From: a virus
Lineage: Duplodnaviria > Caudoviricetes
Direction: 5' to 3' (one strand)
IMG/VR virus record: IMGVR_UViG_3300037150_000196
Span: 1-52,522 of that record
DNA length: 52,522 nt
Shown: one piece after another, positions 3,990 to 28,012 of the stretch
Layout: every line of letters begins with the position of its first letter
How positions within the stretch are numbered: position 1 is the stretch's first letter
The notes under the pieces: model-generated
Databases searched by the model: none
Told to the model about the DNA's origin: nothing
The model's input: only the letters and a program-made list of their open reading frames with translations
Program-made: the position numbers and the translations under genes

Positions 3990-4718
3990 TTAGGTGGCTG
4001 TCAAGCGTTTGTTTATTATGTCGATATACTCTGGTTCTTTCTCTATAAGAATATAATTTCGGTTAAGGTTTTTACAAGCCACACCTGTAGTTCCACTACC
4101 AGCAAAAGGGTCAAGAATAATATCACCTTCGTTACTACTTGATATTATTATTCTTTCAATCATTAAAAGTGGTTTTTGAGTCGGGTGAGCATTAAATTCT
4201 TTCATAGCAAAAAAAGGAATGGTATAGTGCCAAACATTTCCTAGCCCAGTCCATCTACATTTTATTCCATCTTCATTAGTAAACCACCCTCTGGGCTTGC
4301 CATCTTTTGTGTAAGGAGTTATGTGGTATTTTAATAATTTTTGTTCATTCCAAGTAAACCTATTTCCTTTTGTGTAATATAGTATTTCCTCTTTCATCGA
4401 TTTATAATTTTTACTACTTCCTCGGCCTTTGGTACGAGCCCAAGTTATCCAATTCCTAATAGTTCCATATTTATCTAATAGTAGTTTAAATTCAGATACA
4501 TTCGACCAACCCATAAAAGAATAAAAACTCCCATCATCTTTTAATACCCTAAAACATTCACCAACCCATTTTTCCGTAAAGCCAATAAAGTCATTAAAGT
4601 TATCCCAAGCAGCGTAATTTATCCCGTAGGGTGGGTCAACAATAACTAGGTTAATACTTTTATCGGGTATATCTTTCATAAAATCTAAACAATCACCCTC
4701 AATTACTTGGTTTACCAT
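3990..4718 (-). CDS. DNA methyltransferase (N4-C/N6-A, beta class), AT-rich moron
   Basis: VDPPY, HPTQKP and LDPFAGSGTT motifs. Own TATAAT (4727-4732) 8 nt before the ATG. Confidence 0.92.
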   Translation of the reverse strand: MVNQVIEGDCLDFMKDIPDKSINLVIVDPPYGINYAAWDNFNDFIGFTEKWVGECFRVLKDDGSFYSFMGWSNVSEFKLLLDKYGTIRNWITWARTKGRGSSKNYKSMKEEILYYTKGNRFTWNEQKLLKYHITPYTKDGKPRGWFTNEDGIKCRWTGLGNVWHYTIPFFAMKEFNAHPTQKPLLMIERIIISSSNEGDIILDPFAGSGTTGVACKNLNRNYILIEKEPEYIDIINKRLTAT

Positions 4719-4860
4719 TGACTCTTATTATACCTTTATTAAAAACTACTACAAAACGGCTTTAGAATTGTGTTATAATGCTCTTGGTGTGAACTTTAAA
4801 GTAAACCAAAGCGAATGTCCTCATTAAATCAGCAGCTACAACTGCGAAAGAGAACGACTT

Positions 4861-4890
4861 AAGCCAACAGGAACAGTTGGCTTTTTTGTT
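4861..4890 (+). terminator. Intrinsic terminator
   Basis: AAGCCAAC/GTTGGCTT stem followed by TTTTGTTT. Confidence 0.65.
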
Positions 4891-4943
4891 TACCTCCGTT
4901 TTAATTAGAATGTCACTACTTTTTACTTACGTCAAATTCTACT

Positions 4944-6635
4944 CTAGTCACCGCTATCATCTTCAGAGTCGTCTTGGCTACCATCTGGGTAATTAACTAC
5001 TAGGCGGCAGCGGCAATTATGTACCAGTATTGAATTGCAAGTGTAGAATTGATACTCTGTACTTAAATCATATACAAAACCATGAAAAGGCTTAATCTCG
5101 ACACTAACGATCTCGTCCAAGGATATGTCGCTGGGGAATCCGTCAATAAGATCGCTAAAAGCTTGGGGTGTTGTCGTGAGGTCGTCACTAATAGACTTAA
5201 GGAGTCTGGAGTCACAATCAGAAACCAAGTTGTCGCCAATAGACTGATGATGAGTAAAAGATCTCCAGAGTTTAATAAAGCTAACGCGGAAGCAGCCCAT
5301 AGAGCGGTAAAGGGAAGTAAGCAGAGCCAAGATAGTCTTATTAAAAGAGCTAAAGGGGTTGAACTTAGACAAAGCAATTCCTCTCCTGCTGAGCTTATTA
5401 TTATAAGTACGCTTAAACAATTCTCCGTTAACTGTAATCCCCAATTTGCTATCGGCAAATATAATGTCGATATTCTTGCAGGAAACACCATCGCCGTGGA
5501 GATCTATGGGGGAGGCTGGCACGCTTCTAAGAACCACATTGCCAGGGATAGATACATCCTCGATCAAGGATATGACAGGCTTACTATCTGGGTCGATAAT
5601 GTCAAGACTCATCCTTTCGATCCAATTAGGTGCGCTAAACAAATAATCTCCTTTCTTGAGTTTAGACGCTTGAACCCAACCGTTGGGCGTTGCCATCGGA
5701 TGTTTTGGGGTGACGGCAATTCTTATATTAGAACGAGTCGTAAGATAGACAGCAAGACCGTTATAGTCCGCGATCATCTTGGCTGATACACCTAAAGCTT
5801 TAACTTCTTGACCCCCTAAAATAGCATTAGGGTGGGCACTTGGTGCGTCGTCACCAGAACTAAAGGAGTCGTTAATATCTATATCTCCATCATCGGCGTT
5901 ATCTTCACAGATTGGACAGGGATCATATTGAGTTTCCCATGTCTTCGTAGTAGCACCAGACTGTATCCCATAAGTTAAAGTACCTTGGCCGTAAGCGTTG
6001 ACTGATTCTGTCGTGGCGATTAAGTGCGCACGATCTGGGTCATTTACTAAATCACTTAAAGCGTCTTGCGCCTGTTGGACGGTATTACCTTGAGCAAGAC
6101 TATCAGCTATTGAGTTCTGGATCTTACCTATAGTGGTGTCGTTAAGGCCCTTAATTAGCTTGTCTACGTGGTCTCTAGCAGCTTTTTCAATCGTAGTTGA
6201 TAAATCGGTAGCCGCAAGGTCAGAAGCTGCGCCAGCGTCCGCCTCAGCGGCCATAGCGCCGGCTTGTTGAGCTTCGACTATGTGATTAAAAGTTATCTTA
6301 ATTAATAGTTTTGTTTCAGCATCACTAATTGCTTTAGCGGTGACTAGGACTTTGGCGTTAATGGCTGCTTGTTTTTCAGTAGACGTGTTTGGTTTAGCTA
6401 GCTCTTTGGCGTAGGCTTTCCAGTTAACGTATTTAACTGCCCGACTACCGAGACCCTTAAAGTAATTCTTTAACCCTAAAACCATAGCGGCTTCGGCTTG
6501 GACTAGCTTATCAAAAGCTTCGGGATTGTTCTTGTAACCCTTCTCCCAATCTTCGGCAGCGATATAACTAGATAAGGTGGCTGTGACTGTGGTTCTGAGC
6601 CTTTTTAATACGTTCTCTTGTTCTGAGGAAATCAT
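4944..6635 (-). CDS. Head morphogenesis protein (Mu gpF/SPP1 gp7 family) containing an intein
   Basis: RAHLIATTES, K.W...DPCPIC and the C-terminal HPN|CRC motif, which is split by a 270-aa insertion. Follows the portal gene. Confidence 0.9.
   Translation of the reverse strand: MISSEQENVLKRLRTTVTATLSSYIAAEDWEKGYKNNPEAFDKLVQAEAAMVLGLKNYFKGLGSRAVKYVNWKAYAKELAKPNTSTEKQAAINAKVLVTAKAISDAETKLLIKITFNHIVEAQQAGAMAAEADAGAASDLAATDLSTTIEKAARDHVDKLIKGLNDTTIGKIQNSIADSLAQGNTVQQAQDALSDLVNDPDRAHLIATTESVNAYGQGTLTYGIQSGATTKTWETQYDPCPICEDNADDGDIDINDSFSSGDDAPSAHPNAILGGQEVKALGVSAKMIADYNGLAVYLTTRSNIRIAVTPKHPMATPNGWVQASKLKKGDYLFSAPNWIERMSLDIIDPDSKPVISLIEDVSIPGNVVLRSVPASPIDLHGDGVSCKNIDIIFADSKLGITVNGELFKRTYNNKLSRRGIALSKFNPFSSFNKTILALLTSLYRSMGCFRVSFIKLWRSFTHHQSIGDNLVSDCDSRLLKSISDDLTTTPQAFSDLIDGFPSDISLDEIVSVEIKPFHGFVYDLSTEYQFYTCNSILVHNCRCRLVVNYPDGSQDDSEDDSGD
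5016..5825 (-). mobile_element. Intein (270 aa, Ala1...His-Asn, +1 Cys) in the HPN|CRC motif
   Basis: Block B VTPKHPMATPNGWVQASKLKKGD, block F GFVYDLST and block G ILVHN|C. Removing it restores SAHPNCRC. Confidence 0.9.
5082..5786 (+). CDS. HTH + DUF559/Vsr-like endonuclease encoded antisense inside the intein (candidate homing endonuclease)
   Basis: N-terminal YVAGESVNKIAKSLGCCREVVTNRLKESGV (HTH-like). C-terminal SPAE...QFAIGKYNVDI...IAVEIYGGGWH...RDRYILDQGYDRLTIW matches the DUF559/Vsr pattern. Confidence 0.8.
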   Translation: MKRLNLDTNDLVQGYVAGESVNKIAKSLGCCREVVTNRLKESGVTIRNQVVANRLMMSKRSPEFNKANAEAAHRAVKGSKQSQDSLIKRAKGVELRQSNSSPAELIIISTLKQFSVNCNPQFAIGKYNVDILAGNTIAVEIYGGGWHASKNHIARDRYILDQGYDRLTIWVDNVKTHPFDPIRCAKQIISFLEFRRLNPTVGRCHRMFWGDGNSYIRTSRKIDSKTVIVRDHLG

Positions 6636-8559
6636 CGGCCTCCTTTAACTGTTCTTTGGCGATAAATAGAAACTCGCTGGCCGTTTGTGGTGTTATGGTT
6701 TGAAAATTAGACTTAGCAGACTTCGTTTCTAGCTCTTGTTGCTTCTGTAATAGTTGAAGTTCCATCTGCTTGATCTCTTCTAGGCGAATCGGATCACCAG
6801 CACATTCTCGCTTGGCAATTGTTATTTGGATTTGGCGAACGAAATCACGCAACTGATCTTTAAGGATAGCGGTCGTAATAGATGGTTGTGCAACCGGTTG
6901 CACGCTTGGCATATTAGAAACTGGATTGGCCGTACCGTTATCTAACTGCGGTACTTGTGGGGTTTGTGTCGGTTCAATTGTCTCATCAGCGGTATGTTCT
7001 GAAAAGTCCTCATCTTCTTCATTGGGATCTTCTACATCTGGTTTATACGGCGGTGTACCAGGCACAAGTGGTAGCGGTGGGGCAGCTTGAGCAATTGCTG
7101 GCAAGGAATCAAGAATCTCTTCCAGTTTTTGTTTGAACTCTCTAACAGCCTCAGCATCAGCATCTTTAAACGGTAAGTTCATAAGCTCTCGGATATATTG
7201 CTCATCAGCCAGATCGGTTGTAATTGTTCCATTTAAGACTAATTGGTTAATGGCTGCACTTAGGACTTGAATATTGGGATCGCCCAATGGGGCGTGGTCA
7301 AGTTTTGGAATCGCGACATTGTCACCAAAGTTAATTCTTACTAATCGTTCAATAACGTCTTTCTGAATAGAGGCTTCCAGATTATCAGCTTCCGCTTCCA
7401 AGGCGTCCATAAAGAAGTCCGATTGTGATTCAGCAACAGCCCGAGAACCAGAGCCTTTACCAACCGAGTTACCTAGTTCAACAAACTGAGCTAAGACAAC
7501 CTTTAGAATCTGACGGTCATGGTAAAGTAAGGTATCAACTGGATTTCGGAGTGTACCAGCTTTCATATCCATAAAATCAAATAAGAAGCCTTCAGGTGCT
7601 TCGATATAACCGGCTTGGTTGGCTCGTGAGTTCTGAGCAGCTTGACGAGCTAAATTCTTATCCTCTTCGGTCGCCTGTTGTGGTGTGGTAATTGTAAGAA
7701 TACCTAGACCTTGCTTCTCTAAAGCCATAGCGTCGATCTCCTCAACACCCTTTTTAATATACCAATGTTTGTAAGCAGGGCGTAATAGAGAAAGTCCCGC
7801 AAAATTATCACCCTCTTTTTGGTGGGTAATATAGACTAATTTTTCTCTAGGGATCGAAAGCGTACCACCGGACGGCACGATCTGAGTCACACCTTGTTGG
7901 TCAAACTGAGTTACCCATGAGAAAATAGTTCGTTGTTTACGCGAGGCGATCTCGTCAAGACCAATATAGGTTTTGCCCTCAAAAACATCTGACTTATAAA
8001 GTAATTCACCGACATAGAAACCAAACTCGAACTCAGTTAGCATCTCTTCAATCGTGTGTTTCCAGTTTAGGTTTTCAAAGAGCTGTTTGGCGACCCATTG
8101 CTGAATCATCAAGTCTTCGGGTGATTGAGAGGCTGGATCAATAAACCATTTAGCAGCAATAATAGGTAATTTACAGACTAATAAAGCCGCCCTAACCGTA
8201 CCATCAGATCGACGCATCTTGTCGTAAATATCTATCCCGTTCCAACCCGTTAGTTCAAGATTGTATTCTTCAAGGGTAATAATACCTTGAAAAATTAAAG
8301 TACCGGATTGACCGAACTGCCGGCCGGACTTAGCTAACTCAACGCCAAATCCTTCACTGTCTGGCATGGGCGGTGGCACAGGTGGACGAACAACGCCCAT
8401 AGAATAGGCTTCAACGGTTGGCGGCGCTTGATCTGCCCATGGTTTATTTGGAGCGACTGGATTTAGTGGGACGGGTAAGTTACCAGGTAAAATCTGACCA
8501 TAGCCAAGAGTCGTTGCTGGTGGCAAGTTTGGCGTATTCAAAGCTTGAGATGGTGTCAT
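6568..8559 (-). CDS. Portal protein (Mu gp29/DUF935-like) with Pro-rich and acidic extensions
   Basis: Follows TerL. Motifs YDKMRRSDGTV, GF.V.E, GLSLLRPAY.HW..K, HDRQI.K.VL.Q and GSRA. Confidence 0.88.
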   Translation of the reverse strand: MTPSQALNTPNLPPATTLGYGQILPGNLPVPLNPVAPNKPWADQAPPTVEAYSMGVVRPPVPPPMPDSEGFGVELAKSGRQFGQSGTLIFQGIITLEEYNLELTGWNGIDIYDKMRRSDGTVRAALLVCKLPIIAAKWFIDPASQSPEDLMIQQWVAKQLFENLNWKHTIEEMLTEFEFGFYVGELLYKSDVFEGKTYIGLDEIASRKQRTIFSWVTQFDQQGVTQIVPSGGTLSIPREKLVYITHQKEGDNFAGLSLLRPAYKHWYIKKGVEEIDAMALEKQGLGILTITTPQQATEEDKNLARQAAQNSRANQAGYIEAPEGFLFDFMDMKAGTLRNPVDTLLYHDRQILKVVLAQFVELGNSVGKGSGSRAVAESQSDFFMDALEAEADNLEASIQKDVIERLVRINFGDNVAIPKLDHAPLGDPNIQVLSAAINQLVLNGTITTDLADEQYIRELMNLPFKDADAEAVREFKQKLEEILDSLPAIAQAAPPLPLVPGTPPYKPDVEDPNEEDEDFSEHTADETIEPTQTPQVPQLDNGTANPVSNMPSVQPVAQPSITTAILKDQLRDFVRQIQITIAKRECAGDPIRLEEIKQMELQLLQKQQELETKSAKSNFQTITPQTASEFLFIAKEQLKEADDFLRTRERIKKAQNHSHSHLI

Positions 8560-22172: not shown

Positions 22173-22381
22173 TGGACGACGAATACGTAATAAACGAAAC
22201 GGTTAAACCCAAAGGCTTTTCAGATAAAGCTGACGAGAACCCAAACTGGCATGCCCTTAAAACTTTTAGAGATTACTTCATCGCTACCCACGGGGGTAGA
22301 CTGGATAAGTTAACCACCAACGATCTAATTGAATTAAAGCGTCAAGAAGATATTTTTATTCAACAGAGCAAGGCTAGATAA
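22172..22381 (+). CDS. Hypothetical protein
   Basis: TAATG coupling. Confidence 0.6.
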   Translation: MDDEYVINETVKPKGFSDKADENPNWHALKTFRDYFIATHGGRLDKLTTNDLIELKRQEDIFIQQSKAR

Positions 22382-22382
22382 T

Positions 22383-22424
22383 CACTTGACAAAGGTTCTA
22401 AAAAGGTTATTATTAAAGTAATAT
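22383..22424 (+). promoter_or_regulatory. Early-type sigma70 promoter, near-identical to 15670-15711
   Basis: TTGACA-16-TATTAT. Confidence 0.75.
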
Positions 22425-22433
22425 GGAGAGGGA

Positions 22434-22913
22434 ATGAATAAGGACTACTACTGGTATAATAGGTTGTCTAAATTAGGTTATAAGGATCAGATAGACGAGA
22501 TTATTAACCAAAATAACTGTGATATTGATCCAAGTTTTCTAGGCTTTTTAGATACCTACTATTACCTTTCTAAAATAATCCCTAAACACCGTATTGTTAT
22601 TGATCTGGGGTGTTCCTATGGAATACAAGCAGCTTTCTTTGAAAAACACCTGGCTTATATTGGAGTTGACGTTAGTGATTGTCTAAAATTAAAGACTAAA
22701 AAATCTCTTTATATCACTAAAACAATTGACGACTACATAAAAGTAAACGGGTCGTTTGAGAATCAAAATCTTTTTGTTATATGTAATTACGTCCCCACCA
22801 GCACTAAACTCTTGAGGGAGACATTTCCCTACTTATATGTTTTTTATCCAGAGAGAGCCGATAATCCAGAGATATGGAAGGCAGAAAAGAAACTAGTTAA
22901 TATAAACCAATGA
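22434..22913 (+). CDS. Class I SAM-dependent methyltransferase-like protein
   Basis: VIDLGCSYG and YIGVD motifs. Confidence 0.6.
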   Translation: MNKDYYWYNRLSKLGYKDQIDEIINQNNCDIDPSFLGFLDTYYYLSKIIPKHRIVIDLGCSYGIQAAFFEKHLAYIGVDVSDCLKLKTKKSLYITKTIDDYIKVNGSFENQNLFVICNYVPTSTKLLRETFPYLYVFYPERADNPEIWKAEKKLVNINQ

Positions 22914-23125
22914 GAAAGTTAATAGTTGGCAAACAGGAGATCCCCGAAGAGGCCGTTAAGGTTATTAGAAAGATCTACGCTAACTGGATTATTCAACAGA
23001 TAGAGAAAGCTCAATATCCAGATATTAAAGTCTTGGACGACAAAATGACCAAAGAGTACATAGCTAAAATGTGTTATACAGACGGTTTAAACGGGGCAAT
23101 AGAAATAATAAAGGAAGATTTATGA
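22910..23125 (+). CDS. Hypothetical protein
   Basis: ATGA coupling. Confidence 0.55.
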   Translation: MRKLIVGKQEIPEEAVKVIRKIYANWIIQQIEKAQYPDIKVLDDKMTKEYIAKMCYTDGLNGAIEIIKEDL

Positions 23126-23346
23126 AAGACACCGAATTAATTGAACCAGCTTTAATTTTAGTTATTACCAATCGTAGAGGCGTATTAGGTGATAAGACTT
23201 GGTGTTTGGAGAATCATAGAATATCTCTTGAGCAAATTGCCGACACTTTATACGCCGGTGGAATTAAGAATCTATACGATATGTATCCCCAATTAAAAAA
23301 GAGTAAAAGTATCGAATTATTAGATAAGGAGGAAGGTGATCAATAG
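23122..23346 (+). CDS. Hypothetical protein (track ORF 23071..23346 with revised start)
   Basis: ATGA overlap and AAGGA SD. Confidence 0.5.
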   Translation: MKDTELIEPALILVITNRRGVLGDKTWCLENHRISLEQIADTLYAGGIKNLYDMYPQLKKSKSIELLDKEEGDQ

Positions 23347-23524
23347 AGAAAAGATAGAAGAATTAGTAGATCTGTTTGATAAAAAAGTTCAGATTAACCA
23401 GGAGCTTTATGCTAGTGCTAAAAACGAGAACGACGCCTATTATTATTCGGGTGAATTATCTGCTTGGGTACTAGCCAAACAAAGAGTACTTGATCTATTA
23501 AGAGAAAACAGAGGAATAAGATGA
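23336..23524 (+). CDS. Hypothetical protein
   Basis: AAGGAGG SD with a GTG start. Confidence 0.55.
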   Translation: MINREKIEELVDLFDKKVQINQELYASAKNENDAYYYSGELSAWVLAKQRVLDLLRENRGIR

Positions 23525-23688
23525 ATACTCAACTTTGGATATACGGTAAGATAAAAGAGGCTAATGCCTGACGATAACCTCAAAATCCTCCTCGGAGCAG
23601 TCTTCTTAGCGTCTTGTCTGCTGATAGGGGTGTTGGTGGTGACAATAATAGTAATGAGCTGGAAATAAATTAACTAGAAAAGGAAATT

Positions 23689-24030
23689 ATGGCAACAGAA
23701 TACAAACTAACAAAAGAAGAATACGAGAAAGTTAAGCACCTGCTTAAGAAAGAGGCTATTAAGTACAACGCACTTGACGATTTAGTCGGTGGAATTGTCT
23801 TTATTAGAACTGTCACCCACTACTTCACGGGTCGAGCAATAAACATAACGGGTGACTTTATTCACCTGGAAGACGCTGCCTGGATACCTGATACGGGTCG
23901 TTTCTATGAGTTCGTTAAAGGAACACCTACTGATTCGTTGGAAGTAGAACCAATTGGCACAACCTTTGTTGCTATTGGTTCTATTATCGAAATAATGCCC
24001 TATAGTAACTTGTTTACGGTTCAAAAATAA
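23689..24030 (+). CDS. Conserved-looking phage protein (Sm/SH3-like beta barrel suspected)
   Basis: VFIRTVTHYFTGR...LEDAAWIPDTGRF motif. Confidence 0.65.
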   Translation: MATEYKLTKEEYEKVKHLLKKEAIKYNALDDLVGGIVFIRTVTHYFTGRAINITGDFIHLEDAAWIPDTGRFYEFVKGTPTDSLEVEPIGTTFVAIGSIIEIMPYSNLFTVQK

Positions 24031-24137
24031 TGAACCAAGCAGTCGTTAGAACTGGCTGGGAAAGTTCGTGGTCGGGGTCGTGGTCGGGGTCGTGGTCGTG
24101 GTCGGGGTCGAGGTCGAGGTCGTGGTATACAAGTTAA
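24030..24137 (+). CDS. 35-aa peptide with a Ser-(Trp/Gly/Arg) dipeptide repeat
   Basis: TAATG coupling. MNQAVVRTGWES(SW/SG/SR)x10YTS, encoded by ten TCG(T/G/A)GG hexamers at 24066-24125. Confidence 0.65.
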   Translation: MNQAVVRTGWESSWSGSWSGSWSWSGSRSRSWYTS

Positions 24138-24197
24138 TTATGAGCTGGAAATAAGAAGGAAAATGACTAAATATGACAATACAGAGTTGGAGATAAA

Positions 24198-24941
24198 ATT
24201 AAACTATTCAAACTAACAGATTCAGACAACAAAACGAGAGATGACACCAAGTGGGGTGAGAACGTCACTCACCAGCTCAAGAAAGTCAAAAATCCCCAAC
24301 TGTGTTCAGGTGATGTCCTACACGCCTATACCAATGTCAATTTAGGGCTTATCCTAAATCCGATTCACGGCGATATCCAAGATCTTAACATCTGGGAGGC
24401 AGAGGGCGATATAGTGGTTAAAGATTACGGAAAAGTCGGGGTTTTTTCGCTTACCACCACTGGGCTGATACCACCTCCTGCGTGGATAAGTTCCGATAAA
24501 GAAAAAAGCGTTCGGGTAATGTTTGCGATTCTTTGTGCCGAGAGTGTCCTGAAGTACTTTGAGAATAAGTATCCAAAAGACAATAGACCGAGAAGAGCGA
24601 TAGAAGCAGCAAAAGGATACCTTAAACACCCAACGGCTCGTGCGGCTCGTGCGGCGGCTGATGCGGCTTATGCGGCTCGTGCGGCTTATATGGCTTATGC
24701 GGCGGATAATGCGGCTGATGCGGCGGCTCGTGCGGCTTATACGGCTTATGCGGCTTATGCGGCGGCTCGTGCGGCTTATACGGCTCGTGCGGCTTATATG
24801 GCTTATGCGGCTTATGCGGCGGCTCGTGCGGCTTATACGGCTTATGCTGAAATTGACTTTGCCCTCCTAGTTGATATGGCGGTCGAATTGATTATGAACC
24901 CAAAAAAGAAACCTAAAAAACTAGTAAAGGCTAAAAAATGA
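24198..24941 (+). CDS. Phage protein with an Imm5-like D.RPR.AIEAA motif and Ala-rich repeats; probable ATT start at 24198
   Basis: The frame of track ORF 24414..24941 is open 72 codons further upstream (KLFKLTD...WGENVTH...LCS...HAY...LNPIH). GGAG lies 5 nt before the ATT, and an in-frame TGA sits at 24174. Confidence 0.7.
   Translation: MKLFKLTDSDNKTRDDTKWGENVTHQLKKVKNPQLCSGDVLHAYTNVNLGLILNPIHGDIQDLNIWEAEGDIVVKDYGKVGVFSLTTTGLIPPPAWISSDKEKSVRVMFAILCAESVLKYFENKYPKDNRPRRAIEAAKGYLKHPTARAARAAADAAYAARAAYMAYAADNAADAAARAAYTAYAAYAAARAAYTARAAYMAYAAYAAARAAYTAYAEIDFALLVDMAVELIMNPKKKPKKLVKAKK
24633..24848 (+). repeat. Degenerate GCGGCT(TAT/CGT/GAT) repeat array encoding AAY/AAR/AAD
   Basis: Visible directly. 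Confidence 0.9.
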
Positions 24942-25102
24942 CATTTGATTATGAGTGGATAGAAAAACAAGAAGATGTCCGAAAACATATCCAGGAGTGC
25001 GAGGGGAAACATACTCAGCAAGCGATATACAGTACCTTTCACTACGCTCTGACTCAGATATGCTTTGGGTGCCAAAAAGTAAGAAGTACTATCAAGCGAT
25101 GA
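24938..25102 (+). CDS. Small hypothetical protein (54 aa)
   Basis: ATGA overlaps at both ends; MTFDYEWIEKQ...ICFGCQKVRSTIKR. Confidence 0.55.
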   Translation: MTFDYEWIEKQEDVRKHIQECEGKHTQQAIYSTFHYALTQICFGCQKVRSTIKR

Positions 25103-25464
25103 CTAAATATGACAATGTCGAGTTGATTAAGTTCTTGCGAGGGCAACATTGGCTTTTAATGAGTGAAAGGGAGCAAGCTGAAGCCTTTGCTAACGCACTT
25201 GAAGCGCAGGACAAGTCGGACTCTGAACCTTCCAGTGGGGAGCCCGAAGATAATGGTTGTGCCTGTGGTGAATGTCTTACTATGAAGTTGTGCAAAAATT
25301 GCATATGTGGTGGTATACCAATGCTTAAACCTATCAAACCCCAACCAGAGTCTGTGGAGAAGATAAATAAATTGTCTTATGGTTTACTATTACCAGATGA
25401 GTTAGTTGATAAAATAAATAACGCACTAGATAAGTTGACGATAATAAAGGAGGACAAATGCTAG
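25099..25464 (+). CDS. Cys-cluster hypothetical protein (track ORF 24955..25464 with revised start)
   Basis: ATGA coupling at 25099; CACGEC...CKNCIC. Confidence 0.55.
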   Translation: MTKYDNVELIKFLRGQHWLLMSEREQAEAFANALEAQDKSDSEPSSGEPEDNGCACGECLTMKLCKNCICGGIPMLKPIKPQPESVEKINKLSYGLLLPDELVDKINNALDKLTIIKEDKC

Positions 25465-25871
25465 AATTACTAACGGTTGAAAAATTAAAGGCGATGAATG
25501 ACGGAGATATATTTGCCCAAGGCACTATCGTTGACTCTCCTGAAGGTATAAATATGACGAGAACAGAAAAGATGTTAGACTGGGTCGCTTGTAGGGGTCA
25601 AGGTTATCACGACTGGGCTATTTATTGTACTTTTAGTGATAGTTATTGGAGCGAAGACGACATACCACGCTGGAAAAAGGTTGACGAGACTTTTAGAAAC
25701 CTCGCCTATTTAGGTGAGCCAGATTTTAGAAACACCCTGACTGGCATAGTCAAAGACCGTGAAGCCCAAACATATCTAGGTAAAAAAGTGGTAGCTATTT
25801 TGGGGCTGATAGGAGTAATCGTTGGGATAATCACTGGAATCTTTGCGACTATGTACTATGGCCACAAATAG
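25458..25871 (+). CDS. Hypothetical protein with a C-terminal TM helix (possibly chimeric)
   Basis: GGAGG SD; soluble N-half and hydrophobic C-terminus. Confidence 0.6.
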   Translation: MLELLTVEKLKAMNDGDIFAQGTIVDSPEGINMTRTEKMLDWVACRGQGYHDWAIYCTFSDSYWSEDDIPRWKKVDETFRNLAYLGEPDFRNTLTGIVKDREAQTYLGKKVVAILGLIGVIVGIITGIFATMYYGHK

Positions 25872-25905
25872 ATGGTGTATAATAAAATAAATAAGGAGGT
25901 TCTAA

Positions 25906-26046
25906 ATGCTTGAGCTGATTCTAATTGTTCTGCTCGTTCTGTTCTTGCTTGGTGGTTTTGGTCACGTTCTGGCTTGGATTGTATCGCTACCACTGGCGGT
26001 GGTGCTTTTGATTGTAGTAGTAATTGTGTTAGTAAGTAAAAAATAA
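25906..26046 (+). CDS. Small hydrophobic membrane protein (46 aa)
   Basis: AAGGAGG SD; MLELILIVLLVLFLLGGFG...VLVSKK. Confidence 0.65.
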   Translation: MLELILIVLLVLFLLGGFGHVLAWIVSLPLAVVLLIVVVIVLVSKK

Positions 26047-26054
26047 GGAGGTAA

Positions 26055-26966
26055 ATGATTAAAGGCGTAGACGTTTCACAGTATCAAAGTTCGATCAACT
26101 GGCCGGCGCTAAAAAATAGCGTAGATTTTGCGATTATCAAATCAACTGGTGGTTGCCCTGATCCGGGTCAGCCAGACAGCCAGTATCTCGATCCCCATTT
26201 TGAAACCAATAAGACTGAGGCTAGAAACTCTGGTATCTTGCATGGTTTCTATCACTTCTCTTACCCCCAGTACAACACGCCCGAAGCCGAGGCTGAGTAT
26301 GTTGCCCGTGTCCTTAGTGATATCCAACCCGGCGAAATAGTTGCCTTGGACTTTGAGGAAGCCTATGACGGCGACTCAGTGGCGTGGTGTCTAGCGTGGC
26401 TTAACAAGGCTGAGCAATTACTAGGATTCAAACCATTGCTTTACATCAATCTTGCTCTAGCTAAGGCGCACGATTGGCAACCAGTTATTAGCGCCGGCTA
26501 CGGTCTATGGTTAGCAGAATGGACGTTTAACGATAACGGCGTATACGACACCAGTCAACCCTGGCCGATGGCGGCGTTTATGCAGTACTCAGACAAAGGC
26601 CAAGTAAGTGGTATTCCCACCACAGTCGATCTCGATCTGTTCTTTGGTGACGCAGCGCAGTTCCAAGCCTACGGTAAACCTCAGCCAGCTCAACCATTAC
26701 AACCAACGATACCAGCCCCAGTTGAGATAACGGCCGAACTAACCCCAGAGCAACCAACGGAAGTGGCCGAGCCTATCTCGGACGTGCCGCCACATAACAC
26801 GCCTGAAACCCCGGCTACTCCTGAGGTTGAGCCAGTTGTTAGTTCTACTTCAGATACTCCAGTCACTATCGTTACTCACGAAACAATCCTAATCGAACTA
26901 CTCGATGAGTTAAAAAGCTTGGTCGAGCGAGTAGTAGATAAGTTGGAAGGAAAAAAAAATGATTAA
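26055..26966 (+). CDS. GH25 lysozyme (endolysin) with a Pro/Thr-rich tail
   Basis: GVDVSQYQ, GFYHF, ALDFE, LWLA, QYS..G.V.GI...VDLD. Confidence 0.92.
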   Translation: MIKGVDVSQYQSSINWPALKNSVDFAIIKSTGGCPDPGQPDSQYLDPHFETNKTEARNSGILHGFYHFSYPQYNTPEAEAEYVARVLSDIQPGEIVALDFEEAYDGDSVAWCLAWLNKAEQLLGFKPLLYINLALAKAHDWQPVISAGYGLWLAEWTFNDNGVYDTSQPWPMAAFMQYSDKGQVSGIPTTVDLDLFFGDAAQFQAYGKPQPAQPLQPTIPAPVEITAELTPEQPTEVAEPISDVPPHNTPETPATPEVEPVVSSTSDTPVTIVTHETILIELLDELKSLVERVVDKLEGKKND

Positions 26967-27147
26967 ATCATTACAAGGCTACAAAGTCTATTTTGTGTCA
27001 ATTATAGCCATCATCTATTTTGTAGTTGCTTGGTCAACTGGTAACGTCAGCCAAGTGGCTGGTGTCTCCGGTATTTTTACCGCACTTGGTGCGATGGGAT
27101 TCCGCTCAGCTCTCGCCTCAACGCTTGAGCAATTGCTAATTAAGTAA
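26959..27147 (+). CDS. Holin-like two-TM protein (paralog of 31305..31487)
   Basis: L.GYK.Y...I..IIY...G...RSA. Follows the lysin. Confidence 0.65.
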   Translation: MIKSLQGYKVYFVSIIAIIYFVVAWSTGNVSQVAGVSGIFTALGAMGFRSALASTLEQLLIK

Positions 27148-27459
27148 ATGAAACAGCCGTACACCCAACTAACCTTAAAGCACTTGAGGAAGTTGGGTTA
27201 TACGGTGGCAGTTGTTGAACATTGGAATGGGTTTACCAATAATCGGGTAGACCTTTTCAATATAATCGACCTAATCGCAATTAAGCCTGGCGAGATATTA
27301 GGTGTCCAGTCGACCTCAGACAAACAGCGTAATGCCCATATCAGGAAGATAGTTGCCGAGCCGCTACTCCAAGAGTGGCTGGACAGCGGAGCTAAGTTCC
27401 AGCTCATTACCTGGGCTAAGCCAAAGTTTCGCTATATCCCAACAATTGAGAACTTTTGA
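27148..27459 (+). CDS. PD-(D/E)xK nuclease, resolvase-like
   Basis: LRKLGY.V..VE...DLFNIIDLIAIK...LGVQ.T motif. Confidence 0.65.
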   Translation: MKQPYTQLTLKHLRKLGYTVAVVEHWNGFTNNRVDLFNIIDLIAIKPGEILGVQSTSDKQRNAHIRKIVAEPLLQEWLDSGAKFQLITWAKPKFRYIPTIENF

Positions 27460-27515
27460 CAATCTCCACAAACGGAATACTGTAAAGTAATAGTTCGTAC
27501 TTTAGGAGTAACATT

Positions 27516-27692
27516 ATGAAAAAGTGTCGATATTGTGGGAGTGACGATCTCCACCCATTTTCTAATTTGACTCACTGCTTAAATTGTCAACTCTACCTCG
27601 ACGATGAGGACGTGGTTGACGATGAGGACATTGAGCCATCATTATTCGCCGATACCTCTCCAAAGGAGGACGAGTTCAGCTGTGACTACTAA
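27516..27692 (+). CDS. Small Zn-ribbon acidic protein (58 aa)
   Basis: TTGACA promoter at 27456, AGGAG SD; CRYC...CLNC. Confidence 0.6.
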   Translation: MKKCRYCGSDDLHPFSNLTHCLNCQLYLDDEDVVDDEDIEPSLFADTSPKEDEFSCDY

Positions 27693-27754
27693 ACAAAGAG
27701 TTGGTCATTACAGAAAACATCTCAAGTTGCCCCGTCCGAGATTGGAGGTACACG

Positions 27755-28012
27755 ATGGACAGGCACGAATCCGCCCGAAGGTTGCAACAGCAAATAGCTC
27801 TTGCTCTAATAGTCGAAAATAGCCTAGCACTCTGCACCTGGACGTGTGGAATTGAAGGTTGTGAGGGACATATCGAGAGCCAGTATGTTGGCTTGCCCGG
27901 CGAAGGAGATTATATCGGTTGTAACTGCGACAAGTGCTATCGTACATATAACCCGAAGATTTCCTTTGAGTTAGTCCGGCAACTCGACCTACCGAAAGGA
28001 GAGATCATATGA
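27755..28012 (+). CDS. Cys-rich hypothetical protein (track ORF 27701..28012 with revised start)
   Basis: GGAGGT SD before the ATG at 27755. Confidence 0.55.
   Translation: MDRHESARRLQQQIALALIVENSLALCTWTCGIEGCEGHIESQYVGLPGEGDYIGCNCDKCYRTYNPKISFELVRQLDLPKGEII

Follow-up and report, generated by a model that had tools for sequence, protein, structure and literature searches.

The 52,522-bp record IMGVR_UViG_3300037150_000196 from IMG/VR, referred to here in its full length as the window, is a complete viral record (Caudoviricetes) with direct terminal repeats, and near-identical copies of it occur in peat metagenomes from several studies. Its minus strand carries a gene for a MuF/SPP1-gp7-like head morphogenesis protein that is interrupted by an intein, and the plus strand of the intein carries, wholly within the intein, a second open reading frame (ORF) predicted to encode a homing endonuclease. 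An original prediction, made by a model from the letters alone, had described this two-strand arrangement, and all of its factual elements were found as described. The locus comprises the following features:

4944..6635, minus strand: MuF/SPP1-gp7-like head morphogenesis (minor capsid) gene, interrupted by the intein; 563 codons (ORF, Pfam, PHROGs)
5826..6635, minus strand: N-extein, ending ...SAHPN; 270 codons
5016..5825, minus strand: intein, with Ala1 (AILGG...), block B TPKH and blocks F/G ...FVYDL...SILVHN; 810 nt, 270 codons
4947..5015, minus strand: C-extein, beginning CRCRLV (Cys+1); 23 codons
5700..5711, minus strand: intein block B, T-x-x-H (TPKH), which the antisense ORF crosses with its tail
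5121..5621, minus strand: sense-frame insert between the splicing halves, intein residues ~69-235, free of stops
5082..5786, plus strand: predicted antisense homing endonuclease gene, codon-aligned with the intein and wholly inside it; 234 codons plus TGA
5103..5225, plus strand: predicted N-terminal helix-turn-helix (HTH) DNA-binding module, residues ~8-48 (Pfam, structure model, profile matches)
5379..5681, plus strand: Vsr-like (EDxHD) nuclease core, residues ~100-200, with E104, D130, E140 and H147
5682..5783, plus strand: C-terminal tail of the nuclease ORF, running through the codons of block B
5044..5049, plus strand: candidate -10-like element TAGAAT (5 of 6), at the position of TATAAT in relatives

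The sense protein (4944..6635) combines matches to Phage_Mu_F (Pfam, 1e-5, residues 171-270) and to a PHROG head protein (E 2e-25) with a match to Intein_splicing (46.8 bits against a cut-off of 35.8, 3.5e-12, residues 283-540), and the ORF reads ...SAHPN|AILGG...SILVHN|CRCRLV... across the two junctions. The intein site HPN|CRC is the most conserved motif of the MuF/gp7 head-morphogenesis gene. Block B TPKH, the terminal His-Asn and the +1 nucleophile (...VHN|C) are all present, and the same residues recur in relatives (block B Thr in 72/73 and His in 73/73, terminal Asn in 71/71, Cys+1 in 68/71); this conservation suggests that the intein removes itself from the head protein post-translationally. 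The first residue has to be corrected from Cys to Ala (GCT, 5823-5825, minus strand), leaving no Cys, Ser or Thr nucleophile at position 1. This weakens any claim of a standard class 1 mechanism and leaves the identification as an intein untouched. Ala1 is compatible with class-2-type inteins, and KlbA-type inteins with Ala1 are known to splice; the window's intein may follow a class-2-like route, or its splicing may be impaired.

The starts of the intein interval and of the plus-strand ORF differ by 66 nt (5082-5016), so the two frames are codon-aligned, and the ATG of the plus-strand ORF is the reverse complement of the CAT for His in FHGFVYDL. At its other end, the last ~35 codons of the plus-strand ORF cross block B, with TPKH under its 3' part. 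A single 563-codon ORF runs through the head gene and the intein, and a reading of the locus as a split intein in a fractured gene was rejected: across the nuclease match, the sense frame is likewise stop-free in all 97 related loci described below, one frameshifted locus (L010) aside.

Identity and fold of the two translated frames

We next consider what each strand encodes. The antisense ORF matches MTES_1575 (1.3e-4), HTH_58 (1.8e-4) and DUF559 (0.0099), as well as HTH_38, in Pfam, all below threshold, and on these sequence similarities its product is best described as a distant relative, not a curated member, of PF18741 and PF04480. A word-index search returned four homologues (E 2e-31 to 2e-19), three of which carry PF18741 in their precomputed annotation and one of which is named a very-short-patch-repair endonuclease by its source. 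With a 14-sequence profile, the family extended to 18,398 representatives of 50%-identity clusters at E<=1e-3, 3,960 at 1e-10 and 1,321 at 1e-30; these are 185-446 aa long and contain one to five matched stretches, corresponding to repeated HTH modules. One further protein, P0004 (186 aa), matches the HTH and linker of the family over its first ~113 residues (51% identity) and is topoisomerase-IA-like (PF01131) thereafter; it may be a chimera, or a relative that sits in a different host gene.

Among solved structures, the best profile match was 3r3p, the catalytic domain of I-Bth0305I (E 2e-6), and the N-terminal part matched HTH domains of resolvases and transposases. An AlphaFold2 (AF2) model built from the 14-sequence alignment reached a mean pLDDT (the predicted score of the local distance difference test) of 82.9, with three helices in the HTH module (residues 8-16, 21-28 and 32-41) and a nuclease core mostly at 86-97 per 10-residue block, dipping to 64 at residues 141-150 and 81 at 171-180. 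Foldseek placed this model closest to 3r3p (prob 1.00) and also matched Vsr itself (1vsr, prob 0.99). The 3r3p entry is the D196A/H213A mutant of I-Bth0305I (PMC3239194), and in the profile alignment the two substituted Ala positions fall on D130 and H147 of the window's nuclease. Across the 14 aligned sequences E104, D130 and E140 never vary; H147 is kept in most relatives and absent in two (L007 and L009). Taken together, sequence comparison and structure model identify the antisense ORF as a real gene for a predicted HTH and Vsr-like (EDxHD, I-Bth0305I-type) endonuclease, in agreement with the original prediction.

Residues 217-234 of the antisense protein fall below a pLDDT of 50. The tail encoded by 5682..5783 is shaped by the constraint on the sense frame and is probably non-functional in the nuclease, most likely being read-through up to the point where a TCA codon for Ser in the sense frame gives the TGA stop.

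The sense frame models differently. With an 11-sequence alignment of the same loci, the two HINT halves (intein residues 1-67 and 235-270) reached pLDDT 67-91; the insert between them stayed at 27-46 except for a short island of 60-65. Foldseek matched the sense-frame intein model only to mini-inteins (6frg at 8.3e-4, 2imz and 4o1r), and a Pfam scan of the sense protein found no nuclease family in the insert. A sense insert modelled as a folded nuclease would have counted against the original prediction, and the model shows nothing of the kind.

The same layout, and constraint on both frames, in relatives

We then asked how widely the arrangement occurs. A scan of viral contigs yielded 13 loci whose antisense proteins are 33-40% identical to that of the window, and all 13 have the nuclease ORF enclosed by a MuF-type ORF of the other strand, codon-aligned with an intein of the form HPxC...(S/H)N|CRC. 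Both frames are open in 12 of them; in the thirteenth, L010 (3374-5646), one frameshift disrupts the intein and nuclease frames at the same place, reflecting either assembly error or decay. A metagenome scan found at least 437 relatives, the best 80 of which were kept. Across these 80 and four other loci, the codon-aligned opposite frame is free of stops over the nuclease match in 84 of 84, three of which end at a contig edge, and the nuclease ORF is intact in 83. The exception, L096 (1706-2437), has an internal stop in the nuclease ORF and an open intein frame, possibly a decaying homing endonuclease gene (HEG) in a retained intein. In total, 97 of 97 related loci share the codon-aligned opposite-strand layout, about a dozen of them being duplicates or near-duplicates. 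A scan of genome contigs, limited by the peptide pattern used, gave one locus.

The sense-strand hosts were classified with Pfam after removing 10 duplicates and leaving out the two longest (L026 and L041), so that 72 of 74 were covered. Intein_splicing was found in 61/72, Phage_Mu_F in 40/72, Phage_min_cap2 in 7/72 and Phage_portal in 8/72. As a separate observation on these hosts, eight of the 72 MuF proteins carry a fused portal domain, and their overall build varies widely (L014-L098); C-terminal cargo-like domains include Gln_amidase/papain-fold toxin (2), PhageMetallopep (2), NUDIX (1), collagen repeats (1) and DUF6883 (1).

Among GenBank phages, tblastn matched 115 records: Salmonella 62, Pseudomonas 15, Gordonia 15, Klebsiella 8, Vibrio 3 and others. 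In the three records that we inspected, the sole annotated feature is the opposite-strand coding sequence for a head morphogenesis or MuF-like minor capsid protein, and the nuclease ORF is unannotated in all three. On one 79,320-bp contig the element occurs twice (L073 at 22191-27868 and L074 at 61801-67478), ~39.6 kb apart, probably through a double-length assembly of a circular or concatemeric phage genome.

Since the frames are codon-aligned, each alignment column is one codon in both, and we compared the two across 11 distinct loci. Within the insert, identity was higher in the antisense frame (0.43-0.63) than in the sense frame (0.16-0.46), and the most variable base was antisense position 3 (differences of 0.42-0.73 vs 0.30-0.57 at position 1). 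Over blocks F/G and A/B, sense identity was 0.54-0.67 vs 0.36-0.47 for antisense, and sense position 3 varied most; where the nuclease tail crosses block B, the corresponding values were 0.54-0.60 vs 0.41-0.42. The signature of selection thus switches frame at the borders of the insert. An indel of ~48 codons in four of the 11 loci corresponds to an extra HTH repeat in the antisense frame, and such domain-level indels make sense in that frame only.

Both frames also avoid stops. Given how much Leu and Ser the nuclease ORFs contain and the codon usage of each locus, 84.0 sense-frame stops were expected across the 11 loci and none was seen; in the other direction, 107.2 antisense-frame stops were expected and none was seen, with the proviso that the loci share ancestry and are not independent trials. 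For the window alone, chance would hardly leave both frames open: 11.5 sense-frame stops were expected across the antisense ORF (0 seen, P ~3e-7), and for the sense codons of that stretch 16.9 stops in the antisense frame (0 seen, P ~3e-10). In the codon-aligned register, sense stops arise only from antisense TTA and CTA (Leu) and TCA (Ser), all of which can be replaced by synonyms, so that avoiding three codons keeps the intein frame open at no cost to the nuclease sequence. Enumeration of the genetic code showed that this register alone has no forbidden residue or dipeptide, whereas the other two forbid 5 or 6 dipeptides; its advantage is real but modest.

Additional open frames lie in other registers of the intein region, namely 5063-5491 (minus strand, 142 codons) and 5446-5646 (plus strand, 66 codons), and the 13 viral loci likewise show off-register frames of 60-146 codons. 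Such frames probably arise as a side effect of the codon composition that two overlapping frames impose.

Candidate expression signals, probable mobility and competing explanations

In 10 of 10 viral loci a GGAGG-like motif stands 6-10 nt before the nuclease start codon, its bases supplied by the codons after VYD in block F. Aligning 82 loci on the terminal Asn codon revealed, in a subgroup with block G ...STLYIANGxxSSN, TTGACA-17-TATAAT in a constant place, ~26 nt upstream of the ATG (all 12 bases matched in 7 loci, 10 or more in 21 and 9 or more in 27); in a second subgroup, with block G ...IITHN, the Ile-Ile-Thr-His codons generate TGnTATAAT. Against 1000 synonymous recodings that preserved each locus's amino acids and codon usage, the antisense strand of the last 16 intein codons contained TATAAT in 32/82 loci (3.5 +/- 1.8 recoded, max 10) and at least five of its six bases (TAnnnT) in 65/82 (15.6 +/- 3.0, max 26). 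Upstream of the start, GGAGG occurred in 36/82 (8.5 +/- 2.6, max 19) and GGAG or GAGG in 58/82 (24.7 +/- 3.9, max 38). These -10 and Shine-Dalgarno (SD) enrichments are inflated by shared descent, and as sequence patterns they are indicative, not proof, of function.

For the window itself, the original prediction had put forward two promoter candidates, and they fared differently. The hexamers TAGAAT (5044-5049), TTGATA (5049-5054) and TATACA (5071-5076) are all present; a consensus promoter scan of 4600-6100 returned 2 sites vs 2.8 expected from shuffles and reported none of the three. A leaderless TTGATA-16-TATACA promoter is thus unsupported, while TAGAAT, a candidate, does lie where relatives conserve TATAAT.

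Jerseyvirus-type phages offered a view of alleles with and without the element. The gene of BPS11Q3 matches 386 Jerseyvirus-type records, 58 of which cover at least 80% of it and are intein carriers. Among the 60 matches listed, 36 are two-piece, with 86-95% identity, 53-56% coverage and a span of ~1,030 bp in the record; judged by these alignments, they are alleles without the ~820-bp element. PBSE191, for example, reads PPAHPN|CRSTT where BPS11Q3 reads PPAHPN[CLLGD...IIAHN]CRSTT (272 aa), the exteins being otherwise nearly identical. The intein-less allele confirms the HPN|CR(C/S) junction and a precise in-frame insertion in relatives of the window, not in its own lineage; for the window's gene no intein-less form turned up, a blastn search of the phage collection in distant mode having found no DNA match to it. 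The presence/absence pattern in Salmonella Jerseyviruses is the one expected of a homing element.

Collectively, these results make it very probable, in our judgement, that the locus is a composite mobile element in which a HINT-type intein and a HEG of the free-standing type would occupy opposite strands of the same DNA. In this model, the region where an intein usually holds its in-frame nuclease would be the reverse complement of an independent gene for an HTH, a helical linker and a Vsr-like nuclease, and the sense insert would be an unstructured spacer that is merely kept open. By analogy with I-Bth0305I, the antisense protein would cut an intein-less MuF allele near HPNCRC during co-infection, and recombinational repair would then copy the whole element into the cut allele. 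In relatives, the codons of blocks G and F appear to spell out a -10 box, in many cases accompanied by a -35 or a TG extension, followed by an SD and a start codon, and these embedded signals would free nuclease production from the late head operon. An uncoupling of homing from late head-gene expression, as originally proposed, is plausible on the strength of this promoter-like sequence. The central proposal of a separate antisense nuclease gene over a stop-free sense spacer has accordingly held up in the fold, the contrast between the AF2 models, the layout of 97 of 97 loci and the frame-switching selection.

Several observations weigh against this interpretation. The Pfam matches of the antisense protein lie below the curated cut-offs (22.4 vs 38.2 bits for MTES_1575, PF18741; 16.2 vs 20.6 bits for DUF559, PF04480), and the Foldseek match to 3r3p is modest in extent (E 2.5e-3; template modelling score 0.25 when normalised to the query, 0.53 to the target). 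In the profile alignment, D222 of I-Bth0305I, the fifth residue of EDxHD, falls on a column that is not acidic in the clade; D156 of the window lies near it, inside a stretch with a 4-residue deletion. Background codon usage for the stop expectations was taken from every open frame of 120 codons or more, spurious ones included, and a single origin may be all that lies behind the uniform register. More generally, the loci are related by descent, so that locus counts and recoding tests overstate independence. No RNA runs containing the window were listed. Further, intein position 1 is Cys in 69/71 relatives and Ala in 2/71 (L046 and L069), the window's -35 position reads GTACCA (3 of 6), and no SD precedes the ATG at 5082, though 23/52 ORFs of this phage have one.

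The last three of these points also bear on whether the window's copy is a relic, its nuclease no longer expressed or mobile and its intein splicing in a non-standard way or poorly. Ala1, the missing SD and the poor -35 mean that this copy may be weakly expressed or past its mobile phase, given GGAGG and TTGACA at these positions in relatives; moreover, the contigs of four peat-metagenome runs showed no intein-less form of the gene, which is weak evidence. On the other hand, the 234-codon ORF is intact and keeps E104, D130, E140 and H147 where 16.9 antisense stops would be expected without selection, TAGAAT is retained at -10, Ala1 does not preclude splicing in KlbA-type inteins, and the promoter and ribosome-binding-site consensus may not be that of the host. 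We consider a relic somewhat unlikely, and such a history would be compatible with the composite element at the level of the family; the chances that the window's copy is still active seem about even.

Three further explanations concern the family as a whole. Of these, the least credible, and in our view barely tenable, is that the antisense ORF is a non-coding shadow frame held open by constraint on the sense frame, its homologues being artefacts of gene calling on the wrong strand. Codon-aligned antisense frames are indeed the easiest to keep open, and annotators left the ORF uncalled in the three GenBank records inspected; yet conservation and third-position variation in the insert track the antisense frame, that frame alone is modelled with confidence and independently resembles Vsr and a homing endonuclease of solved structure, and the HTH-repeat indels, the enrichment of upstream SD and -10 motifs and the 0 stops against 107 expected all point the same way. 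The frame-switching selection, the 3r3p match and the AF2 contrast contradict a shadow ORF outright. It is highly unlikely, too, that the sense insert is a functional domain, for instance a new nuclease read in frame or a structural element of MuF, in a dual-functional locus. The insert does contain a short conserved DLHGDG...IDII at pLDDT 60-65 and strands in the sense model, but this conservation is explained by its being the complement of the nuclease catalytic motif AVEIYGGGWH, and the remainder combines pLDDT 27-46 with low sense identity (0.16-0.46), no Pfam match and mini-intein folds only. An in-frame nuclease in the sense insert was rejected on the same grounds. We give similarly little credence to a domesticated antisense protein serving as an HTH regulator, or to an antisense transcript that regulates MuF, in place of homing: the one to five HTH repeats of the family and the position of the gene antisense to a late structural gene would suit such a role, but across the clade the residues of the nuclease motif vary little or not at all, and Jerseyvirus presence/absence with exact junctions fits homing.

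Returning to the composite element, a broader joint claim seems to us evenly poised between true and false. It holds that the MuF intein and its antisense EDxHD nuclease are a single two-strand mobile element, ancient and very successful, in which the whole expression cassette of the nuclease (sigma-70 -35/-10 or TGnTATAAT, SD and ATG) would be written in the codons of blocks G and F; that the nuclease would have its own promoter, convergent with the late operon and independent of it; that cultured phages of Salmonella, Pseudomonas, Klebsiella, Vibrio and Gordonia carry the element without annotation; and that the window's copy, with Ala1 and having lost its SD and -35, would represent a late stage of the homing cycle. 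If true, the same DNA would specify splicing chemistry on one strand and the start signals for transcription and translation on the other.

Around the element, the MuF gene shares its first 68 nt (6568-6635) with the end of an upstream 663-aa ORF (6568-8559, minus strand); this upstream ORF is portal-gene-like, judged from position alone. Downstream of MuF, a 242-aa ORF (3990-4718, minus strand) contains a DPPY motif, which we take to be typical of N6/N4 DNA methyltransferases, and a terminator-like hairpin with a T-run (4861-4893, plus strand) lies between the two genes.

Implications and comparison with known systems

The element has consequences beyond the window. With ~230 shared codons and a constraint that switches frame, it is among the clearest natural cases of long antisense overprinting, and it supports the view that inteins acquire nucleases through invasion by free-standing HEGs. 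The embedded promoter and SD, if functional, would mean that an invading gene can import or evolve the means of its own expression within motifs essential for splicing. Cultured carriers would provide tractable systems for studying the colonisation of inteins by free-standing HEGs (the 'splicing first' model). The antisense nuclease ORF should be looked for in phage annotation, and the cultured enterobacterial and Gordonia phages allow direct tests.

In their account of I-Bth0305I, Taylor et al. 2011 (PMC3239194) characterise the prototype EDxHD homing endonuclease. The window's nuclease resembles it in its Vsr-like core, with equivalents of D196 and H213 and two conserved Glu, in its order of N-terminal DNA-binding region and C-terminal nuclease, and in its tie to a self-splicing element in a phage gene. 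I-Bth0305I, however, resides in a recA group I intron and uses NUMOD motifs, whereas the nuclease described here has a DNA-binding part of one or several HTH repeats, and its gene shares its DNA with an intein.

Dassa et al. 2009 (PMC2677866) reported inteins split by free-standing HEGs of the Vsr-like kind, and describe fractured genes and GIY-YIG HEGs as well. There, as in the window, a Vsr-like HEG of the free-standing type sits at the point where inteins accommodate their homing endonuclease (HEN), and the model offered is one of HEGs invading inteins. The HEG of that report follows the orientation of the parent gene, and host gene and intein are split; the window's HEG is inverted and the gene unsplit.

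An intein in a Mu F-type head protein without a recognisable sense-frame endonuclease has a precedent in Ward et al. 2004 (PMC517821), where the intein of the Mu-like prophage F protein (gp30) of Methylococcus capsulatus is said to lack 'a recognizable endonuclease'. A nuclease on the other strand would explain MuF-type inteins described in this way, and if the M. capsulatus gp30 intein also has an antisense ORF, the puzzle of 2004 would have the same answer.

The closest counterpart is found in the preprint of Gosselin, Arsenault and Gogarten (2025, bioRxiv 10.1101/2025.01.02.630785, October 2025 version), whose main text describes 'anti-sense VSR-like HEN' inteins in actinophages, together with antisense LAGLIDADG and out-of-frame EndoVII-like types; the architecture, which the original prediction had thought undescribed, is thus already known. 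As given there, inteins in minor capsid proteins are exclusively non-canonical, the nuclease was matched to 3R3P, and the architecture is called rare, the coverage being that of PhagesDB. For antisense LAGLIDADG inteins the preprint cites Gorbalenya 1998 and Gogarten 2002 (Synechocystis DnaX, Chloroflexus SpoVR-like); these share with the window a homing endonuclease opposite the intein strand and differ in their LAGLIDADG nuclease, their host genes and their occurrence in cellular genomes. With the antisense VSR-like HEN inteins, by contrast, the window shares an unsplit intein, an antisense Vsr-like ORF and a structureless sense insert, as well as minor capsid proteins among the hosts, and the actinophage Vivi2 of Gordonia has the same layout as the window. 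Unlike the actinophages of the preprint, the window is a phage from peat metagenomes, and we found the layout in 115 GenBank records and at least 437 metagenome stretches. The preprint's main text contains none of 'promoter', 'ribosom', 'synonymous' and 'Salmonella', and has 'codon' only within 'stop codon'; relative to that text, our results on register, stop avoidance and embedded signals are additions. The window is therefore a new, non-actinophage member of a known architecture, to which the present analysis adds breadth beyond actinophages, selection that switches frame, a quantified avoidance of three codons, and an embedded cassette of promoter-like, SD and start signals.

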